IMG/VR virus record: IMGVR_UViG_3300044712_001292
Span: 39,000 to 102,999 of that record
Reading direction: 5' to 3' (one strand)
Length of the DNA stretch: 64,000 bases
DNA from: a virus
This document shows, one piece after another, positions 662 to 63,524 of this stretch. Made by a program: the position numbers and the translations under genes. How positions within the stretch are numbered: the first letter of the stretch is position 1; the number at the start of each line of letters is the position of its first letter. The notes under the pieces were generated by a model, which was not told the DNA's origin, did not search any database, and worked only from the letters and a program-made list of their open reading frames with translations.

Positions 662-1273
662 ATGCAAGCGACACGGATGTCCGGCAGCCCCGTAGAAGAC
701 GCCTCGGTGATTCGTAAAGACGCGCCCATACCTGTCTTGATGCAGGAACACGACGGGTCGTTCCGAAACGCAGGCACGACGGTAGCCGCCGACCTCCCAG
801 AGCCTAAGCTGACCGACCCGCTTCCACAGGATGCTGGTTCGACGAGAGCGAAGCCGGAGTTCGAAGTACCAGTAGGGCAGGCTATGGCGCAAGCCTCCGG
901 ACTGGCGGTACCGGCGCCTGCGCAGCCAGCGCAGTTTAAGCCTTCTGTGTCCAATTATACGCCCCCTCCGACCCCAGCACCGCCAGCTAAACGCGTTCGG
1001 GTACGGATGTCGAATCCGGGCATGGGCAGGGTAACGGTCGGTGTTCGCGCGGTCAGTATCTCGGAAACCGTCGTCATCCTCGCTTACCCGCAGGACGCCG
1101 ACAACATCGTTGAACCCCCTGTCTGTGGTGGAGATAACCCCATCCGTGTCGAATTCGAGGGGAAGAAGTACACGTGCGTATTCGGTGGATGGACAACAGA
1201 ACTCGAGGGGATGTTCCTGGTCGTCCTCTTACGCACCGGAGAAGACGAGGACCCAAGCCCTTCTAAGGCTTGA
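662..1273 (+). CDS. Hypothetical protein with Pro/Ala-rich linker and C-terminal beta domain
   Basis: ORF 584..1273; ATG 662 avoids overlap with the upstream gene. Confidence 0.65.
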   Translation: MQATRMSGSPVEDASVIRKDAPIPVLMQEHDGSFRNAGTTVAADLPEPKLTDPLPQDAGSTRAKPEFEVPVGQAMAQASGLAVPAPAQPAQFKPSVSNYTPPPTPAPPAKRVRVRMSNPGMGRVTVGVRAVSISETVVILAYPQDADNIVEPPVCGGDNPIRVEFEGKKYTCVFGGWTTELEGMFLVVLLRTGEDEDPSPSKA

Positions 1274-1309
1274 ATCCGCTCGTCGTAACACCACAATCGT
1301 GCGAGACCT

Positions 1310-3163
1310 ATGACGACGTTCATTCCTCCCCCGCGGCCTGTGGCCGGAGCCGTCGGCAGCGGAGGCGCAGACAAGCCGGTTATCTCACCGTGGATGGACT
1401 ACGCATCGTTGACGATGCCGGACAGCCACCAGCTGGTGATGTGGTGGGCGCAGTATCTGTGGATGATGGATGGTAACTATAGGACGGCGATGGAGCGGGT
1501 TGCCGCCCACTTCCTGACCATCATCGAGTTCCCCGATCTGGAGCCTGACGAAGAGAGCGAGTGGCGCGACTTCTTCAGCAACCACATGAACTACCGCCGT
1601 GAGCTGCTTGCCTGCGCTCACGAATACCTCTGCTACGGCAACCTCATCGTTGGCTTGTACCTTCCCTTCAAGCGGTTCGCCCGGTGCCGTAACTGCTCCG
1701 TCGAGAACCCGCTGAGCGAAGTCGATTACGAGCTAGAGCTTGTTGATAAGCACCCGTACCTGCACTGGCGCAGGGTGCGCCCCTGCCCGAAGTGTCAGGA
1801 TAAGCAGACATATGAGGTTTTCGACCGCCGGTCGTCCGATCTATCCAAGGTGCGGCTGAACCGGTATTGCCCGCTTGAAATCGAAATCGCGTTCAACCGC
1901 CACAGCCACAGCAAGAATATCTACTGGAATATACCGGACGATGAGGTTCGTGATATTCAGCAGAAAGCACGCATCCATATCGACGAGACACCGCTCGAGG
2001 TGCTGGAGACGGTCGCGGCCGGCGGTAAGCTGCACTTCAACAGCGACCTGATCCTGCATATCGATGAGCCGTGCATCAGCGGTGTTCGCACGCGTGGCTG
2101 GGGCGTGCCGCGTACGATCGCCAACTTCCGTACGGCGTGGATGCAGCAGGTGACGAGTAAGGCGGACCAGACCGCGATGCTCGACTACACACTCGGTATG
2201 CGCTGGATCTCCCCGTCGCCGACACCCGGCGGCACGGATCCGATGATGAATCGTGGCATGCAGGAGTTCGTCGCGCAGATCAGCGCTGCAGTGCGTGAGC
2301 ATCGTCTCAATCCGGCGTCATACCACACGTCACCGTATCCGCTGACGTACCAGTTCATGGGCGGTGAAGGCGGCGCACTCGTGCCTCCGGAGAAGCTCAA
2401 GTTCCGTCAGCAGGAATACCTGAACCAGCTCGGTATTCCTCTGGAATACCATCAGATGAACCTGAGCACGCAGGCCGCTCCCATGGCGCTGCGTCTGTTT
2501 GAGTCGTACTGGCAAGCCCTCCCGGCGTTCTACAACAAGATCCTTACGTGGATCACGGAGATGCTGTCCAAGACGTATAATCTCGAGGCGACATCGGTTC
2601 AGATGCAGAAGACCACCGTTGTCGACGACGCCAACTACAAGGCGCTGTTGCTGCAGCTGATGTCTGGCAACCAGCTTTCTCCCCAGACCGCGCTCGAGCC
2701 GCTTGGCATCAACGCGCACGAGGAGGTCAAGAAGGTCTACCGTCACCAGGACTATGTCAGCCGGGTACAGTCCGAGTTCGACGAGAAGGCCCAGAAGCGG
2801 CAGGAGATGGCGGCGTTCAAGTCGCAGGTACAGCAGCCGACGGCAGCCCAGCTCGCCCAGCAGCAGCAGGGCGGGGCGCCTCCGCCTCCTGGAACTCCGA
2901 TGGGTGGTGTTCCGACCGGAGGCATGCCTGGCGCATCTCCGAATACGCCTCAGACGCTGGCTGGTCTGGCGGATCAGGCGTCTCAGATCGCTCAGCAGCT
3001 CGTGACGCTGCCTGAGTTCGAGCGTAAACAGCAGCTCAAGCAGCTTCGTGAGGGGAACAAGCAGCTGCACGCCCTGGTTATGAGCGATATGGAGGACCTG
3101 CGGGAGGCAGCTGCCAACCAAGGTAAGCAGATGATCCTTCAACAGGGACCCCCGCAGGGCTAG
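1310..3163 (+). CDS. Probable portal protein with Zn-ribbon insertion and Gln/Pro-rich tail
   Basis: 617 aa; portal-like EYLCYGN segment and GWGVP motif; CRNC...CPKC insert; heads the head module. Confidence 0.7.
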   Translation: MTTFIPPPRPVAGAVGSGGADKPVISPWMDYASLTMPDSHQLVMWWAQYLWMMDGNYRTAMERVAAHFLTIIEFPDLEPDEESEWRDFFSNHMNYRRELLACAHEYLCYGNLIVGLYLPFKRFARCRNCSVENPLSEVDYELELVDKHPYLHWRRVRPCPKCQDKQTYEVFDRRSSDLSKVRLNRYCPLEIEIAFNRHSHSKNIYWNIPDDEVRDIQQKARIHIDETPLEVLETVAAGGKLHFNSDLILHIDEPCISGVRTRGWGVPRTIANFRTAWMQQVTSKADQTAMLDYTLGMRWISPSPTPGGTDPMMNRGMQEFVAQISAAVREHRLNPASYHTSPYPLTYQFMGGEGGALVPPEKLKFRQQEYLNQLGIPLEYHQMNLSTQAAPMALRLFESYWQALPAFYNKILTWITEMLSKTYNLEATSVQMQKTTVVDDANYKALLLQLMSGNQLSPQTALEPLGINAHEEVKKVYRHQDYVSRVQSEFDEKAQKRQEMAAFKSQVQQPTAAQLAQQQQGGAPPPPGTPMGGVPTGGMPGASPNTPQTLAGLADQASQIAQQLVTLPEFERKQQLKQLREGNKQLHALVMSDMEDLREAAANQGKQMILQQGPPQG

Positions 3164-3165
3164 TC

Positions 3166-3193
3166 TTGCAGGCTCGAAAAGGACCCATAAGGT
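3166..3193 (+). promoter_or_regulatory. Putative promoter TTGCAG-16-TAAGGT, 6 nt before ATG 3200 (leaderless)
   Basis: Member of a fixed-spacing motif found before many genes here. Confidence 0.6.
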
Positions 3194-3199
3194 ACCCCC

Positions 3200-3718
3200 A
3201 TGCGTACGACTGATATCCTGACCAAGGCTATGTGTAAGGCGGCCGCTGATTCGGGTGAGTCTGCTAGTTATCTCGATCAGCTCCCGTTCCTGGGCAGCAC
3301 GGTTCTCGGCGGTATCATCGGACGCCGCATGGGCGCTTCTGGAAGCGCCCGCCGCGGATTCGGAGCAACGCTTACAGGCGCTACGCTGGGTGGGGTGGCG
3401 GGAGTGAAGGCTCAGGACGCACGCGATTCAGCGTTGCGTGAGATCGATCGCCACGGCGACGCCCCGCTTGTTCAGGGCGCGAACGCAGCTATCGACGCTG
3501 CTGGGGCCGCCACTGAACGCATGCGCGACCCGTTTAAGGATACGCTGGCTCGGAAGCCGGAGCCGACCTTACTCGAGCGCGCTGGTAACGTCGCCGGACA
3601 GTACTGGCGGAATCTCAAGTCAGGGGATCCGCTGACGATTGCGGGAACCGGGGCCGCAGCTATACTCGCAGGCGTGCTAACGCACCAACTCCTCAAGAAG
3701 AAGCGCGCTCGCGCTTAA
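3200..3718 (+). CDS. Gly-zipper membrane-type virion protein
   Basis: GxxxG hydrophobic segments; N-terminal KAA; C-terminal GAAAILAGVLTHQLLKKKR. Confidence 0.7.
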   Translation: MRTTDILTKAMCKAAADSGESASYLDQLPFLGSTVLGGIIGRRMGASGSARRGFGATLTGATLGGVAGVKAQDARDSALREIDRHGDAPLVQGANAAIDAAGAATERMRDPFKDTLARKPEPTLLERAGNVAGQYWRNLKSGDPLTIAGTGAAAILAGVLTHQLLKKKRARA

Positions 3719-3733
3719 TAAAGGAACATCACC

Positions 3734-4510
3734 GTGTCTACGAAGCTCGAGAAGACTGCTCAGTTCCTGAAGAAAGTGGCCGCCGAGGGCGGCTCTATCT
3801 GGAACAAGAGCCTGTACGGTGGCCCAGAGGCCCCCTTCCAGCAGCCGAGTCACTACCCGGCTGAGGTCATACATCGCCTCCTTGCCGAGGCTGATAAGCT
3901 CCCTGAGGGCTCGGACGAGGCTGCCGCAGCTGCGAGTGCTCGGCAGGCGATCACTGAGGCCGGTGGTATGCACAAGCTCGATCAGGCCGGGATTGATCGC
4001 ATTGCGGTTCGCGCCGGTGCGAGCCCCGCCGACAAGAACACTCCGGGCTTCTGGAGCAACTATCGCGCAGCTATGGGCCGTGGCCACCTGGGAGCTACCG
4101 CTGCCACCGTCGGCATTGGCGCTGCAGCCGTTCTGGCCGGTGTGCTGACCTACAATGCGCTGAAGAAGAAGCGTACGCAGACAAAGACCGCCGGACTCTT
4201 CAGCTTCCGGCGGAGTAATTCGCCGAATGCCCAGGGCCCTGCTCCTACCCGCGCCGCAGAACGTACCCAGAAGGTCCGCGATCTCGTAGGCAAGAAGGTT
4301 CGTAATGCGGCGCTGCTGGCAGGTGGCGGTGGCGCCCTCGCCGGCACGGCCGCTGGCGCTGCCCTGGCCTCCCCCGGCGATACCGTCGCGGGCGGCCACG
4401 GTCTCCCCACCACAGGCAGCAACCTGGGGGACGCAGCTGTCCTCGCTGGCGGCCTGGGCCTCGGGGGAGCCGGCCTGTACGCGCTGTACCGCTCCCTGCG
4501 CGACGAGTAA
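3734..4510 (+). CDS. Gly-zipper membrane-type virion protein, partial paralog of 3200..3718
   Basis: SD AAGGA before GTG; GAAAVLAGVLTYNALKKKR; KTA and KVA motifs. Confidence 0.75.
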   Translation: MSTKLEKTAQFLKKVAAEGGSIWNKSLYGGPEAPFQQPSHYPAEVIHRLLAEADKLPEGSDEAAAAASARQAITEAGGMHKLDQAGIDRIAVRAGASPADKNTPGFWSNYRAAMGRGHLGATAATVGIGAAAVLAGVLTYNALKKKRTQTKTAGLFSFRRSNSPNAQGPAPTRAAERTQKVRDLVGKKVRNAALLAGGGGALAGTAAGAALASPGDTVAGGHGLPTTGSNLGDAAVLAGGLGLGGAGLYALYRSLRDE

Positions 4511-38864: not shown

Positions 38865-40862
38865 ATGACCGAGCCCGTTACTACAGTACTGCCGACGACG
38901 CTCTTCCGGCGTTTCCGCGAAGTGCCGGCCACACTGTCGTCGCAAAACGGCGTCCTCCTCGCCGGTATGGCCTACGTCGAGCACGGATACAAGCGTGCAG
39001 CCGGTACGGGCGGCATCGGTCAGTACGTCGGCTCGACGCTGACAGCTGCGTGGCCGAATCTAGGTGTGAACGAAACGGTTCGTACATCGACGGCTGTCGC
39101 CACCATCGTTTCTGCCATCGTCCGTTACTATACGGAGACCGGCGCTCCCGGTGCTACCAAGGGCACACAGTACGGTACGGCGCCGAATAAGATCACACAT
39201 AACGGTACCGCGACCATCTGGACCGGAGCCGGGTTCACTCCGTCGCTGAACGTGCCTCTGGCTGTCGGTGACTATGTACGGCTGGACAATAACGGGGTGA
39301 CAGTTCTTCACACCCGTGTGACTGGTTTCGAGGCTATCGGCGGTCAGCTGAAGGTTCTTGTTCTCGCGGACAACATCCCGGCCGCGCTGACCGGCGTTGG
39401 CGTATACTTCAACGTCAGTGTCGGTCAGGTAGCGACTCTGGATCTGCTGAACAGCCAGCTGACCACGACTTCCAGCCAGGTCACGATTCCGGCCGCGCTG
39501 ACGGCCGCAACGTCGCGCACGGGCAGTGCCTACCCGGTTATAGGCGCCACGCTGCCGGATGGCACCGTCCTCGGCCAGGCCTATGTCGACTACTTCGCGA
39601 CACTGACGGGCGCCTTCACAGGCAACGTGGTGAAGTTGAAGACCGCCACCGACGTTTATGCGACGTTCCCGGATACCGGCGTAGGTTCGGGACTCGGCTT
39701 CGCCGCGCTCAACGCCCTATCGCCGACGGTTACGGGGCTTCAGCCTGCGCCGGTTGGCGTCATAGCTCCGACGAGCGATACGCTGGGTGGCTATCAGGCA
39801 CTCATCGACGTCATCCGTTTCCGGTCTGACTACAGCGCGATTGCCGTACTCAGCGAGGACTCGAGCGTCATAGCTGCGTTCGCTGATCTGCTGAACTCTC
39901 GCGCATCCAACTATCAGCCCGCTCAGCTGTTCGTCGGCATGTCGTTCACGAAGGACGAGGAAATCGGCTCGTCGACAGCCGTAACGATCAACGACTCGCA
40001 GACCCCAGGTGAGCAACGCACGTTCCTGGTTACGGCCGGAGCTCCGTTCGCAACCGCGGTAAGCGGTGACACCATCCGTCACTACACGTCTCCGACGGTT
40101 TATGTGACGTATGTTATCCAGTCCGTCATCAGCACCCAGACGGCTATCGTCACGTCTGCGGTGCCCGGCGGCCCCCTGGCTGCCCAGACCATCGAAGTCT
40201 GGCACCACCTGACGACGGCTGAGCAGGTCGCTTCGGCGATCGGCGAAGCACAGTCGTTTGCGAACGACTCGGTGAACCTGATCTACCCCGACACCTTCAC
40301 CTACGGCGGTGTATCGGTTCCGCCGTACATGATGGCTGCTTACGCTGCTGCGCTGCAGTCATGGTCCGCCCCGCAGCAGATGCTGTCGTACGTGGTACCG
40401 TCCTCCCCCTGGAGCGCACCGACGCAGGCGGCTGTGTCGGGCTATCAGGATGAGCTGGCGTCCGGCGGTCTGTTCGTGTTCGACGTATCGACGTCCGGTG
40501 TCCTCTACGTCCGCTTCCCGCGTACGACGGACCCGTCGTCTGATCAGACGTCTCAGTCTGTCGTTGTGGCGACGGAGCAGTTCGTTACGCGGTATATCGC
40601 CAGCCAGCTGACTCCGCTGCTGGGTCTGTACCGGACGTCGACGGAACTGTACGCTCAGCTGCGTACGAAGGCCTCCGCAGCACTGGCGTCGTTGCGGAAC
40701 GCGTCCGTCAGCGGTCTCGGTTCCATCATCATCTCTGGCACTGTCGGCGACATAGGCCAGAGCACGACAAACGCCAACACTGTCGTCGTTCCTATTACCG
40801 TATCGATTGCCGGCGTCGCTGAAGACATCCTCCAGCTCGATATCACGGTCACGCTAGGGTAA
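38865..40862 (+). CDS. Tail sheath protein
   Basis: 665 aa; sheath-like C-terminus (ELASGG..VRFPRTTD..VVVPITVSI..LQLDITV); followed by a tube-sized gene. Confidence 0.75.
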   Translation: MTEPVTTVLPTTLFRRFREVPATLSSQNGVLLAGMAYVEHGYKRAAGTGGIGQYVGSTLTAAWPNLGVNETVRTSTAVATIVSAIVRYYTETGAPGATKGTQYGTAPNKITHNGTATIWTGAGFTPSLNVPLAVGDYVRLDNNGVTVLHTRVTGFEAIGGQLKVLVLADNIPAALTGVGVYFNVSVGQVATLDLLNSQLTTTSSQVTIPAALTAATSRTGSAYPVIGATLPDGTVLGQAYVDYFATLTGAFTGNVVKLKTATDVYATFPDTGVGSGLGFAALNALSPTVTGLQPAPVGVIAPTSDTLGGYQALIDVIRFRSDYSAIAVLSEDSSVIAAFADLLNSRASNYQPAQLFVGMSFTKDEEIGSSTAVTINDSQTPGEQRTFLVTAGAPFATAVSGDTIRHYTSPTVYVTYVIQSVISTQTAIVTSAVPGGPLAAQTIEVWHHLTTAEQVASAIGEAQSFANDSVNLIYPDTFTYGGVSVPPYMMAAYAAALQSWSAPQQMLSYVVPSSPWSAPTQAAVSGYQDELASGGLFVFDVSTSGVLYVRFPRTTDPSSDQTSQSVVVATEQFVTRYIASQLTPLLGLYRTSTELYAQLRTKASAALASLRNASVSGLGSIIISGTVGDIGQSTTNANTVVVPITVSIAGVAEDILQLDITVTLG

Positions 40863-61463: not shown

Positions 61464-61733
61464 GTGAAACACGTCACCAGAGCTATGGCCGTCGCCAGGG
61501 CGGCCCGGTGGGGCGTAGACCCCACCAACCTGACCGCCGCTCAGATTCTGGTGGCGGTCGACACTGCGAAGAACCGCTGGACGGTACTTCGCAGCGTGGC
61601 CCCCATGTCCCCGGAAAGCGGCGGCGACAGTCGCCCCGGGGATAGGACATTTAACTGGCGTGGTAGATCGTACCGCGTCAGTTACTTCCACAGCGGCGAT
61701 GTCGCGGGCATCACCGCTGTGGATGGGGATTGA
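61464..61733 (+). CDS. Hypothetical protein
   Basis: Strong SD AAGGAG, GTG start, 89 aa. Confidence 0.7.
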   Translation: MKHVTRAMAVARAARWGVDPTNLTAAQILVAVDTAKNRWTVLRSVAPMSPESGGDSRPGDRTFNWRGRSYRVSYFHSGDVAGITAVDGD

Positions 61734-61738
61734 CGACA

Positions 61739-61768
61739 CCCGGAGCCTGCCCGGGTTACCAACAGGCG
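61739..61768 (+). repeat. 30-nt pseudoknot-forming element, copy 1
   Basis: CCCGGAGCCTGCCCGGGTTACCAACAGGCG, 5 nt after a stop codon. Confidence 0.8.
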
Positions 61769-61931
61769 GTCCGTCGGGGGACCTTAAACCGTGTTAGGCC
61801 CGACGCGTCCGCCATCTGGCGGGGTCACATGACTGACTGTGGGGTGTACCCGCGGGTCGGTGAGGCGCCGGTACCGTAACACCGGGTTTCGCAGGCTCTC
61901 GGAACCTGCATGTTCTCGAAAGGAACATACC

Positions 61932-62957
61932 ATGCTGCAGATCGTCGGAATCAATACGGCCCGCGCTTGCGCCAAGGAGGGCAGCCTCCTAATCGGTACC
62001 CACTCGGGGCCGTTCCACGCCGACGAGGCCGGGGCCATCGGCCTCGTCGAAATGTACCGGGAGGCGTTCGCCCTCGGCGCCGTCGCCGCGGTGCGTACCC
62101 GCAATCCCGCGGAGCTCGCCTCCATCAAGGAGGCCGGTGGCGTCCTGGTGGACGTCGGCGGCGAGTATGTCCGCCCCAAGGGACCGGATCTCCGCGGTCT
62201 CCTGGCGGACCACCACCAGAAGGGTGGGGCGTGCCCGCCGCGCCCCAATGGGGTCCCCTACTCCAGCTTCGGGCTGGTGTGGCGGGAGATCGGCCCCGCC
62301 ATCTGCCGCCACACCATGGCCCAGCTTGGGGTCCCCGAGCTCGACGAGGCGGTCGTCGTCGATACGGTGGACGAGGGGCTCGTAAGCGCCATCGACGCCA
62401 CGGACAATGGAGCGGTCGATACGGTTGCGACCGTGAAGTCGACGGGGCGCCCCATGGCCCACTGGGGTGTCAGCCTGGTGGTGCACCAGATGAACCCGCC
62501 GGCGATCCCGGGCCTGGAGCAGAACTTTGACGAGGCCTTCATGAAGGCCGTCAAGTTCATGCAGACCTGCGTGGCAGCGGCGGTGGTCTCGGCCATCGCT
62601 GAGGAGGCCGCGAAGGCCACTGTCCGCAAGGCCATCTCCATCTCCACGGGACCGGTCCTCCAGCTCGACACCTATGTCGACTGGCAGGACACCGTGGCGC
62701 GTGAAACGACCGACGTGCTGTACGTGATCTTCCGGAACCCCGAGGGGACCTGGATGGTCCAGCAGGTGCCCAAGGCCCTGGGATCATTCGAGGGCCGCAA
62801 GCCCTTGCCGGCCGCGTGGGCCGGGCTGCGCGACACGGCGCTGCAGGCCGTCACCGGCGTGCAGGACGCGGTGTTCTGCCACAACGGCAGGTTCATCGCC
62901 GGGGCCAAGAGCCGTGAGGGTGCCCTGCGCCTCGCCAGGCTCGCCGTGGAGGCGTAA
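61932..62957 (+). CDS. myg1: MYG1-family (UPF0160, DHH-like) exonuclease
   Basis: THSGPFHADE, RTR, DVGGEY, DHHQ, SSFGLVW, IDATDNG, PLPAAWAGLRD, FCHNGRFI; SD before ATG 61932. Confidence 0.93.
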   Translation: MLQIVGINTARACAKEGSLLIGTHSGPFHADEAGAIGLVEMYREAFALGAVAAVRTRNPAELASIKEAGGVLVDVGGEYVRPKGPDLRGLLADHHQKGGACPPRPNGVPYSSFGLVWREIGPAICRHTMAQLGVPELDEAVVVDTVDEGLVSAIDATDNGAVDTVATVKSTGRPMAHWGVSLVVHQMNPPAIPGLEQNFDEAFMKAVKFMQTCVAAAVVSAIAEEAAKATVRKAISISTGPVLQLDTYVDWQDTVARETTDVLYVIFRNPEGTWMVQQVPKALGSFEGRKPLPAAWAGLRDTALQAVTGVQDAVFCHNGRFIAGAKSREGALRLARLAVEA

Positions 62958-62962
62958 CCCCG

Positions 62963-62992
62963 CCCGGAGCCTGTCCGGGTTACCAACAGGCG
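62963..62992 (+). repeat. 30-nt pseudoknot-forming element, copy 2
   Basis: CCCGGAGCCTGTCCGGGTTACCAACAGGCG, 5 nt after the MYG1 stop; 29/30 identical to copy 1. Confidence 0.8.
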
Positions 62993-63426
62993 ACCAGGAA
63001 AGCCAGGGTGCGACACACCCTGGTTGCCCACCACGGGAAGGTCCAGCTTCGCGAGCTGGCTGCATAACCTGCAGATCATAGCGCATAGGGCGTCAGCTCC
63101 CCGGTCACAGCTGACAAGGACTGTTATGAAGGCGGGAAACCTGCACCGGGGTTCTCAACCCCCGGTGCCGCCGTCAGGTCATACCTGGCGGCAGTTAGCA
63201 CCCCGTCTCTGGCGCCTTGAGCGCCAGTAATGGGGTGCGAAGAAACCAGGGTGGCAACGGCCCTGGTTTCTACACCAATACGTTGCACTTTTCACCTCCC
63301 CTACCAGATAGGTTGGGCCGGTGTAACAATCGTGAATCACGCGCCTTCGGGTTGCGTGGTCACACTGTTACACTGGCTCAGCGTATCTGGTAGGGTCGGT
63401 GTGTTGTGGGTTCGGCCGTTTTTTTT
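62963..63426 (+). ncRNA. Candidate ~460-nt structured ncRNA ending in a U8 tract
   Basis: Consecutive stems at 63001-25, 63043-59, 63092-115, 63143-68, 63170-92, 63198-238, 63241-71 and 63299-395, many with G-U pairs on the + strand. Confidence 0.55.
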
Positions 63427-63436
63427 ACCTATGAAC

Positions 63437-63524
63437 GCGGAATGCGCCTAGCAGCCGACTCATAATCGGTCCTCGTTAAACGCTGGGTCGGTCGAGAGAG
63501 GTTCGATTCCTCCATTCCGCACCA
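63437..63524 (+). tRNA. Atypical tRNA, anticodon CAT (Ile2/Met type), lacking a D arm and with a long variable region
   Basis: Acceptor GCGGAAT(G)/(C)ATTCCGC-A-CCA; anticodon arm GCCGA-CTCATAA-TCGGT; T arm GAGG-TTCGATT-CCTC. Confidence 0.75.

Follow-up and report, generated by a model that had tools for sequence, protein, structure and literature searches.

A family of compact H-type RNA pseudoknots found mostly just behind stop codons in unrelated phages and two Nocardia genomes

Introduction

What might the same short RNA element be doing behind the stop codons of two neighbouring phage genes? The question is raised by a 64,000-nt stretch of viral DNA (record IMGVR_UViG_3300044712_001292, positions 39,000 to 102,999), hereafter the window, which forms the last 64 kb of a 103-kb contig with 60% G+C and a CheckV completeness of 53%. 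The element, CCCGGAGCCTG[C/T]CCGGGTTACCAACAGGC, occurs twice on the + strand, on either side of a gene of the MYG1 family (Table 1). A sequence-only reading had described it as a compact H-type pseudoknot exactly 5 nt after two stop codons, and had proposed an RNA motif acting as an exonuclease roadblock, a processing or antitermination signal, or a protein-binding tag. We report that the two copies belong to a small, uncatalogued family of compact H-type RNA pseudoknots present in several unrelated phages and in two Nocardia genomes, and we weigh what such a module may do at the end of a gene.

Results

Two copies of one pseudoknot flank a MYG1 gene

Neither copy has a mismatch to the pattern, for which no match is expected by chance (100 shuffles), and the entire 103-kb record holds only these two. 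The gapless repeat covers 30 nt (61739-61768 and 62963-62992) at 97% identity and has sharp ends with no further extension. The copies differ only at the junction, which is C61750 in one and T62974 in the other. The direct repeats lie 1224 nt apart and bracket exactly one gene, MYG1, together with its leader. Both stems are perfectly complementary in the window copies and, as separate hairpins, are worth −8.4 and −5.4 kcal/mol. The same geometry of two five-pair stems occurs just once more in the genome on either strand, within a tRNA T-arm.

Copy 1 follows the TGA (61731-61733) of an 89-amino acid open reading frame, ORF-A, and copy 2 the TAA (62955-62957) of MYG1, each after a spacer of 5 nt. 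The sequence-only reading was thus accurate on the two copies, their coordinates, the intact stems and the single junction-base difference. Its remark that each copy heads a structured non-coding tract also held, with z = −2.2 downstream of copy 1 and −6.7 downstream of copy 2. The motif had further been denied the status of an intrinsic terminator, and indeed the + strand between 60500 and 64000 contains no hairpin followed by a U-tract; stem 1 is followed by UU only.

Stem 2 covaries in phages related through MYG1

We retrieved two metagenomic loci, L008 and L009, by MYG1 homology (71% and 49% identity, respectively) and independently of the motif. In both, the motif stands behind the stop codon of an ORF-A homologue, with spacers of 8 and 7 nt, so that three related phages have it behind a shared upstream gene. 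The window ORF-A is a weak N-terminal homologue of the gene at this position (28% identity to that of L008 over the N-terminus), while the L008 and L009 proteins are 65% identical. Stem 2 reads GCACG/CGUGC in both relatives versus GCCUG/CAGGC in the window, which amounts to two compensatory double changes. Stem 1 and loop 3 are kept, apart from one loop-3 change in L009 (UUAACAA). Across the four homology-linked copies, all 40 of 40 cells are paired, and sliding the partners by 1-3 columns lowered this to 0-44%. Both relatives have the upstream copy alone, with none 3′ of MYG1, and the gene order near MYG1 differs among the three phages.

Pattern scans yield five further copies

In scans for the pattern, stem 1 and loop 3 were fixed by the query, and most matches were due to chance. 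Nonetheless, 3 of 61 pattern-only matches had at least 6 Watson-Crick pairs in stem 2, versus 0.19 expected (P = 0.0005). Five copies were accepted: one in a phage of 51% G+C (L090/L091; stem 2 CUCUAG/CUAGAG), one in L174 (GCUUA/UAAGC), one in a 150-kb phage contig (L222/L264; UAAGCA/UGCUUA) and one in each of two Nocardia genomes (L133, UGCGGUG/CACCGCA; L092, UGCGGCG/CGCCGCG). The proteins encoded downstream of the L090 and L174 copies are not detectably homologous, and these two were therefore treated as independent. Four of the five copies lie 2-8 nt after a stop codon; L090 has none nearby.

With the nine copies in hand, the anatomy of the family can be described. Stem 1 is CCCGG/CCGGG throughout. 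The loop between its arms has 7-8 nt, of which 5-7 pair with a downstream segment to form stem 2, and stem 2 takes seven distinct forms in the nine copies, all fully paired. Loop 3 has 7-10 nt and begins with UUAMCAA, which is constant across copies, and the whole element measures 29-33 nt. Covariation, read from the aligned sequences, supports the pseudoknot through stem 2 only; the stem 1 fold, and any triplex that loop 3 might form with stem 1, are predicted features. The covariation that the sequence-only reading had proposed to look for was found in part, with compensatory changes and kept pairings in stem 2 but no variants of stem 1 and no third copy in the genome. All three stop codons occur in front of the motif, at distances of 5, 5, 8, 7, 5, 7, 8 and 2 nt, and the chance of a stop codon within 10 nt is ~9% per frame. 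The 5-nt spacing claimed earlier is right for both window copies but is not a rule of the family, in which relatives have spacers of 2, 7 or 8 nt.

No family in Rfam 15 matched the motif in the window and ten loci at gathering and permissive thresholds, and at E values up to 10 nothing overlapped either window copy or the copies in L008, L090, L092 and L133. A similarity search of phage GenBank entries likewise gave no match to the motif, and a string search of the literature for the core sequence returned unrelated primers only. The description as an uncharacterised motif at the RNA level has therefore stood, given the covarying stem 2 and the lack of an Rfam family. A covariance model (R1) detected no further copies in the genome of the window or in three other phage records; among 151 Nocardia genomes, beyond the known copy, it returned only false positives in coding regions or plain terminators. 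A link to MYG1, whose protein had been named for stalling assays, was not borne out: four other records with the motif or a look-alike encode no MYG1, and the MYG1 relative in L088/G005 has no motif.

Several matches were set aside. Those in L003, L004, L005, L006, L089 and L137, and that in L121, which lies inside an open reading frame, were judged chance or ambiguous. A look-alike in a dicistrovirus-like RNA virus (L007, 2981-3011, − strand; helicase/RdRp ORF1, capsid ORF2) is found 8 nt after the ORF1 stop codon, where it opens a 378-nt intergenic region; its membership is unproven because its stem 2 needs two G-U pairs. Most matches of the widest viral scan were plain terminator hairpins from a single gut-phage family; others were antisense to a 16S-like 3′ end. 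CCCGG-loop-CCGGG-UUANCAA lacking stem-2 pairing is often a plain terminator hairpin and is thus not diagnostic. In the gut-phage family (L211, L217, L220 and ~60 more loci) the gene-end CCCGG-loop-CCGGG hairpin has a 6-nt loop in ATTGCA or TGCAAT orientation. In two pairs of viral records of ~90 kb (L216/L263 and L250/L306), AGGAGGTGATCCAG, the reverse complement of a 16S rRNA 3′ end, lies just 5′ of a motif-like hairpin; these sites are probably antisense to the 16S-like 3′ end (helix 45). A hairpin in L171 (2026-2110, +) carries CACCUCC in its loop and stem, similar to the 16S anti-Shine-Dalgarno sequence, and a very basic 16-codon open reading frame (MRRHHGGRKGRHGRRK) has a ribosome-binding site, GGAGGU, able to pair with this segment.

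Ribozymes and hairpins follow the motif

A device that forms RNA 3′ ends, or a candidate for one, lies closely behind six of the nine copies. Directly after copy 1 begins a predicted pistol self-cleaving ribozyme. The permissive Rfam scan placed RF02679 at 61772-61829 with 32.8 bits, a near miss that is 1.7 bits under the gathering cut-off of 34.5; the E value is 0.0014 over 2.6 kb and 0.034 over 64 kb, and this is the only ribozyme match in the window. The pistol class is defined by three stems, by a pseudoknot that the P1 loop forms with the P2/P3 junction, and by a junction of strictly 2 nt that holds the cleavage site (PMC4604425). This architecture is found at 61768-61829, which has P1, P2, P3, the P1-loop pseudoknot, the conserved UUAGG and GCG and a GU junction, and which lies between phage genes, the usual setting of such ribozymes. 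It differs from the class in the separate pseudoknot joined to its 5′ end and in a C-A mismatch within P2. Cleavage at the predicted site would leave two transcripts, one of ORF-A that ends in the knot and the body of the ribozyme, the other of MYG1 with a leader of 107 nt. In the nested minimum free energy fold, 61739-61760 of copy 1 pairs with 61877-61903 (GUAACACCGGGUUUCGCAGGCUCUCGG) through ~20 interrupted pairs that span the predicted cut site; this modelled long-range helix could be a competing helix or chance.

The knot of L009 is followed instead by a hammerhead. Two sites in that locus have the CUGANGA and GAAA cores, stems I-III and UH cleavage triplet of type-I hammerheads, and they are the only sites with this structural pattern in 2.3 Mb of collected loci. 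One starts ~1 base after the knot (4092-4141) and the other lies just upstream of MYG1. Rfam gave only a weak match to the type-III hammerhead model in L009 (25.4 bits), overlapping the first site and the motif. Each hammerhead is followed by the same leader, made up of GCAGAAA(A)CCCAAAC, a hairpin and AGGAG. In both, loop II is (C)CUGGUAA, of which UGGUAA exactly complements UUACCA in loop 3 of the window; with loop 3 of L009 itself (UUAACA) there is one mismatch. As far as the sequences tell, one slot is taken by knot plus pistol in one phage and by knot plus hammerhead in another. The proposal of a processing signal hence fared half well: a processing element does adjoin copy 1, but it is a separate, known ribozyme (a hammerhead in L009). 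The knot is a module upstream of the cutter rather than the cutter.

Instead of a ribozyme, a strong hairpin follows copy 2 and both Nocardia copies, and the L222 copy precedes a hairpin with a U-tract. These hairpins (−31 to −40 kcal/mol) begin 3-14 nt after the motif. The order in L222 is stop codon, 7 nt, knot, 3 nt, strong hairpin and a U-rich run, which is terminator-like. In Nocardia it is stop codon, 2 or 8 nt, knot, a conserved CAACUGAAUAG and a hairpin of −36 to −40 kcal/mol, and the flanks of the two copies are otherwise unrelated. The L092 copy (− strand, around 1083-3267) lies between an Amidase_2 gene and a gene with a PE-PPE domain; because this pair resembles the lysin A and lysin B of actinophages, the locus may be a prophage. 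The usual place of the motif is between a stop codon and a predicted maker of an RNA 3′ end.

Genes and other RNA elements near the copies

The features of the locus are collected in Table 1. The window ORF-A has no Pfam or PHROG match. Its relatives (L008, 359-709; L009, 3674-4054) end in Arg/Lys-rich tails, RLLKRAAKRAQRKA and RLRKRAAKRH, that are missing from the shorter window protein. The closest relatives of the window MYG1 are 71%, 77% and 49% identical, and the 23 nt preceding its ATG are 96% identical to those of the MYG1 relative L088. A hairpin at 63243-63268 resembles that at 63000-63025 (AARCCAGGG...CCCUGGUU) and has a U-rich tail; the two may represent the terminator type of the phage itself.

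An odd tRNA-like element is located at 63436-63521 (+). It gave a weak match to the Rfam tRNA-Sec model (25.6 bits versus 47) and no ARAGORN call, and has a CUCAUAA anticodon loop (CAU), a long extra arm and a canonical GGUUCGAUUCC T-arm. Just 5′ of it, 63293-63328 and 63366-63401 form a 36-nt inverted repeat with 83% complementarity. Other tRNA-like sequences, at 240-312 in L008 and 4540-4612 in L009, have a GGTTCGAA T-arm and a CCACCA end and drew no ARAGORN or Rfam call; they share the neighbourhood of the knot and MYG1.

Table 1. Positions of the pseudoknots, ribozymes, genes and structured elements (window coordinates unless L009 is named)
Feature	Position	Strand	Details
Pseudoknot copy 1	61739..61767	+	Stem 1, 61739-61743 with 61751-61755; stem 2, 61745-61749 with 61763-61767
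Loops of copy 1	61744, 61750, 61756-61762	+	Loop 1, A61744; junction, C61750; loop 3, UUACCAA 61756-61762
Pseudoknot copy 2	62963..62991	+	Stems as in copy 1; junction base U62974
Pistol self-cleaving ribozyme (predicted)	61768..61829	+	RF02679; begins at the base directly after copy 1
Pistol P1	61768-61772 with 61779-61783	+	GGUCC/GGACC, 5 pairs
Pistol pseudoknot	61773-61778 with 61799-61804	+	P1 loop GUCGGG with CCCGAC, 6 pairs
Pistol P2	61790-61793 with 61826-61829	+	Weak; 3 pairs and one C-A mismatch
Pistol P3	61808-61813 with 61818-61823	+	UCCGCC/GGCGGG, 6 pairs
Predicted pistol cut	between G61824 and U61825	+	2-nt GU junction
ORF-A (upstream gene)	61464..61733	+	89 aa; GTG start behind a good ribosome-binding site, AAGGAG; TGA stop
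MYG1 leader left after the predicted cut	61825..61931	+	107 nt; terminal hairpin GUUCUCGAAAGGAAC holds the ribosome-binding site
MYG1-family gene (UPF0160, DHH-type)	61932..62957	+	341 aa; PF03690, E 1.2e-59; TAA stop
Strong hairpin	63000..63025	+	CCAGGGUG/CACCCUGG, then UU; 9 nt 3′ of copy 2
Non-coding structured tract	62992..63290	+	z = −6.7; no RNA family match
Type-I hammerheads of L009	4092-4141 and 4862-4912	+	CUGAUGA/CUGACGA, GAAA, short stems

Discussion

Our preferred interpretation, held tentatively and with less than even confidence, is that the motif is a gene-end module, portable between genes, whose fold persists during termination by the ribosome and which caps or insulates the cistron at its 3′ end. 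From the footprint of the ribosome, a spacer of 5 nt should bring the first base pair of the knot to the mRNA entrance while the A site holds the stop codon; in that position the knot need not be unwound during termination and could stay folded. After cleavage or termination it would remain beside the coding region as a very stable cap, which may limit 3′-to-5′ exonucleolytic decay. Alternatively, the knot may shield the fold of the ribozyme or hairpin from disturbance by the ribosome and the coding sequence. The ORF-A and MYG1 cistrons would each carry their own copy, with the pistol cutting between them to give a separate MYG1 transcript. We infer the protective or insulating role from this arrangement. 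A general terminator or processing signal was rejected, since the motif is rare, with one or two copies per genome, and the window has one ribozyme.

Several observations weigh against a cap or insulator. The ribozyme body or terminator hairpin already structures the 3′ end, and an extra cap is not obviously needed. No recognisable ribozyme or clear hairpin follows the motif in L008. In L090 and L174, a ribosome-binding site and start codon follow the knot after 6-7 nt and there is no 3′-end former behind it, a placement that looks more like that of a leader element. All five pairs of stem 1 are invariant, and scans that left stem 1 free gave chance matches alone. Since stem 1 never varies, its pairing rests on complementarity, and the pseudoknot is unproven by covariation. 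Finally, a helix and a loop that never vary are typical of an element specifically recognised by a protein or ligand, more than of one that is simply stable.

This last point leads to a regulatory aptamer, in which stem 1 and loop 3 would bind a ligand or protein and switch the element behind them, be it a ribozyme, a hairpin or terminator, or access to the ribosome-binding site. Such an aptamer would explain the invariance of stem 1 and UUAMCAA next to a stem 2 that is free to vary. The knot lies 0 nt from P1 of the pistol and ~1 nt from stem I of the hammerhead, its distance of 3-14 nt from the strong hairpins matches the layout of an aptamer with its expression platform, and in L090 and L174 it directly precedes the ribosome-binding site. 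We nevertheless consider it unlikely. Small pseudoknot riboswitches hold their ligand at junction bases, and here the two junction bases are not conserved (A/C/U and C/U/A/G). No riboswitch family matched even at E values up to 10, the family has no conserved alternative pairing of a mutually exclusive kind, and the downstream genes share no function (MYG1, scaffold-like, unknown). A related and still less probable idea is that of a new recognition module, a triplex-type 29-nt knot that is bound by a conserved cellular factor or metabolite and gates the fused 3′-end former (pistol, hammerhead or terminator). If true, unrelated phages and some Actinobacteria would share a natural means of controlling self-cleaving ribozymes allosterically.

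The remaining explanations appeal to translation, DNA and tRNA mimicry. A knot at the ribosome entrance might modulate termination, read-through, frameshifting or re-initiation; six of the eight spacers equal 2 modulo 3, that is, one frame relative to the stop codon, and the Nocardia copies have stop codons in the other two frames just past the knot. Stimulators of frameshifting and read-through typically lie 5-8 nt away, as many of the spacers do. However, the spacers of L009 and L222 are 7 nt, no slippery heptamer (XXXYYYZ) is found upstream, the extensions (17-141 codons) are unconserved and out of frame with the next gene, the read-through or shifted products, short in some cases, never join that gene, all three stop codons are used, and the L090 copy has no nearby stop codon. 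Read-through, frameshifting and hopping were rejected after inspection by eye and by script, and we give a translation-linked signal little credence overall. We attach a similarly low probability to a feature of the DNA, namely a cassette boundary or duplication scar left by insertion of the pistol-MYG1 block, with an incidental RNA fold. The direct 30-nt repeats around one gene and its leader, the varying gene order and the 97% identity, which fits a recent duplication, favour such an origin, and the repeat fits a cassette-like duplication because L008 and L009 have one copy each, upstream of MYG1. Against it, stem 2 covaries across lineages, which indicates selection on pairing, and unrelated phages have single copies that bracket nothing. 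A cassette duplication can be compatible with a portable gene-end RNA module that doubles as a recombination point. Least probable of all, in our view, is a tRNA-like mark, whose stacked stems would imitate an acceptor/T-arm helix cut by host RNase P or RNase Z and so serve the purpose of the ribozymes. The dimensions of stem 1 are those of a T-arm (5 pairs and a 7-nt loop), loop 3 contains ACCA, and odd tRNA-like elements occur near the motif in the window, L008 and L009. The loop, however, is not T-loop-like, ARAGORN and the Rfam tRNA models find nothing at the motif, the ACCA is inside loop 3 rather than following a helix, and in two cases a cutter already adjoins the knot.

The gene-end module can be compared with several known systems. 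In topology and size it resembles other small pseudoknots of the H type whose loop 1 has 1 nt and whose loop 3 has 7 nt, such as those of the T2/T4 gene 32 leader, luteovirus frameshift sites and the preQ1-I aptamer, and its A/C-rich loop 3 is long enough to span the minor groove of a 5-pair stem 1. Unlike them, it has no slippery site and is found behind a stop codon rather than within a leader or an overlap. From preQ1-I it is further set apart by the lack of an RF00522 match and of a conserved ligand-pairing C, as the junction base is C, U, A or G. The exoribonuclease-resistant RNAs of flaviviruses and plant viruses stop the 5′-to-3′ enzyme Xrn1 by means of a 45-70-nt ring fold with a three-way or stem-loop core. 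They share with the motif a compact pseudoknotted fold in intergenic or 3′ untranslated regions, and a block to exonucleases that is known for them and predicted here, but the motif has no match to them in sequence or Rfam family.

Closer in proposed function are bacterial mRNA 3′ stabilisers such as REP/BIME hairpins and the 'positive retroregulator' of Bacillus thuringiensis cry, which are plain hairpins and often multicopy. Like these, the motif would be a stable structure after the stop codon that blocks 3′-to-5′ exonucleases and is portable between genes; unlike them, it is a pseudoknot (29-33 nt) in which one stem and one loop never vary, and it occurs once or twice per genome. If it acts as an exonuclease block or an insulator of ribozyme folding, engineered operons could use it as a compact part to stabilise cistrons or keep them apart. 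Being short, missing from Rfam and governed by clear rules (stem 1 and loop 3 fixed, stem 2 free), the motif could be added there as a family and searched for on a large scale. Promoter-early stem-loop (PeSL) cassettes of T4-type phages, reportedly described by Arbiol in 2010, combine a promoter with a simple stem-loop. The likeness is that single accessory genes are flanked by short structured repeats, which may help to shuffle them; at our motif no promoter-like site was found and the fold is a pseudoknot.

The nearest parallel in gene arrangement is with the clustered hammerheads and ribozyme-punctuated phage and prophage operons that Perreault is said to have described in 2011. As there, a predicted self-cleaving RNA stands between two phage genes and is followed by a short leader with a hairpin at the ribosome-binding site, and here pistol and hammerhead are swapped in the same slot between relatives. 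Unlike those operons, the window has a single ribozyme-bearing gap, and an extra pseudoknot is placed between the stop codon and the ribozyme. The arrangement bears on what self-cleaving ribozymes do in the operons of phages: a second RNA module, also conserved, lies 5′ of two ribozyme classes and elsewhere of terminator-like hairpins, and points to a shared 'gene-end' logic.

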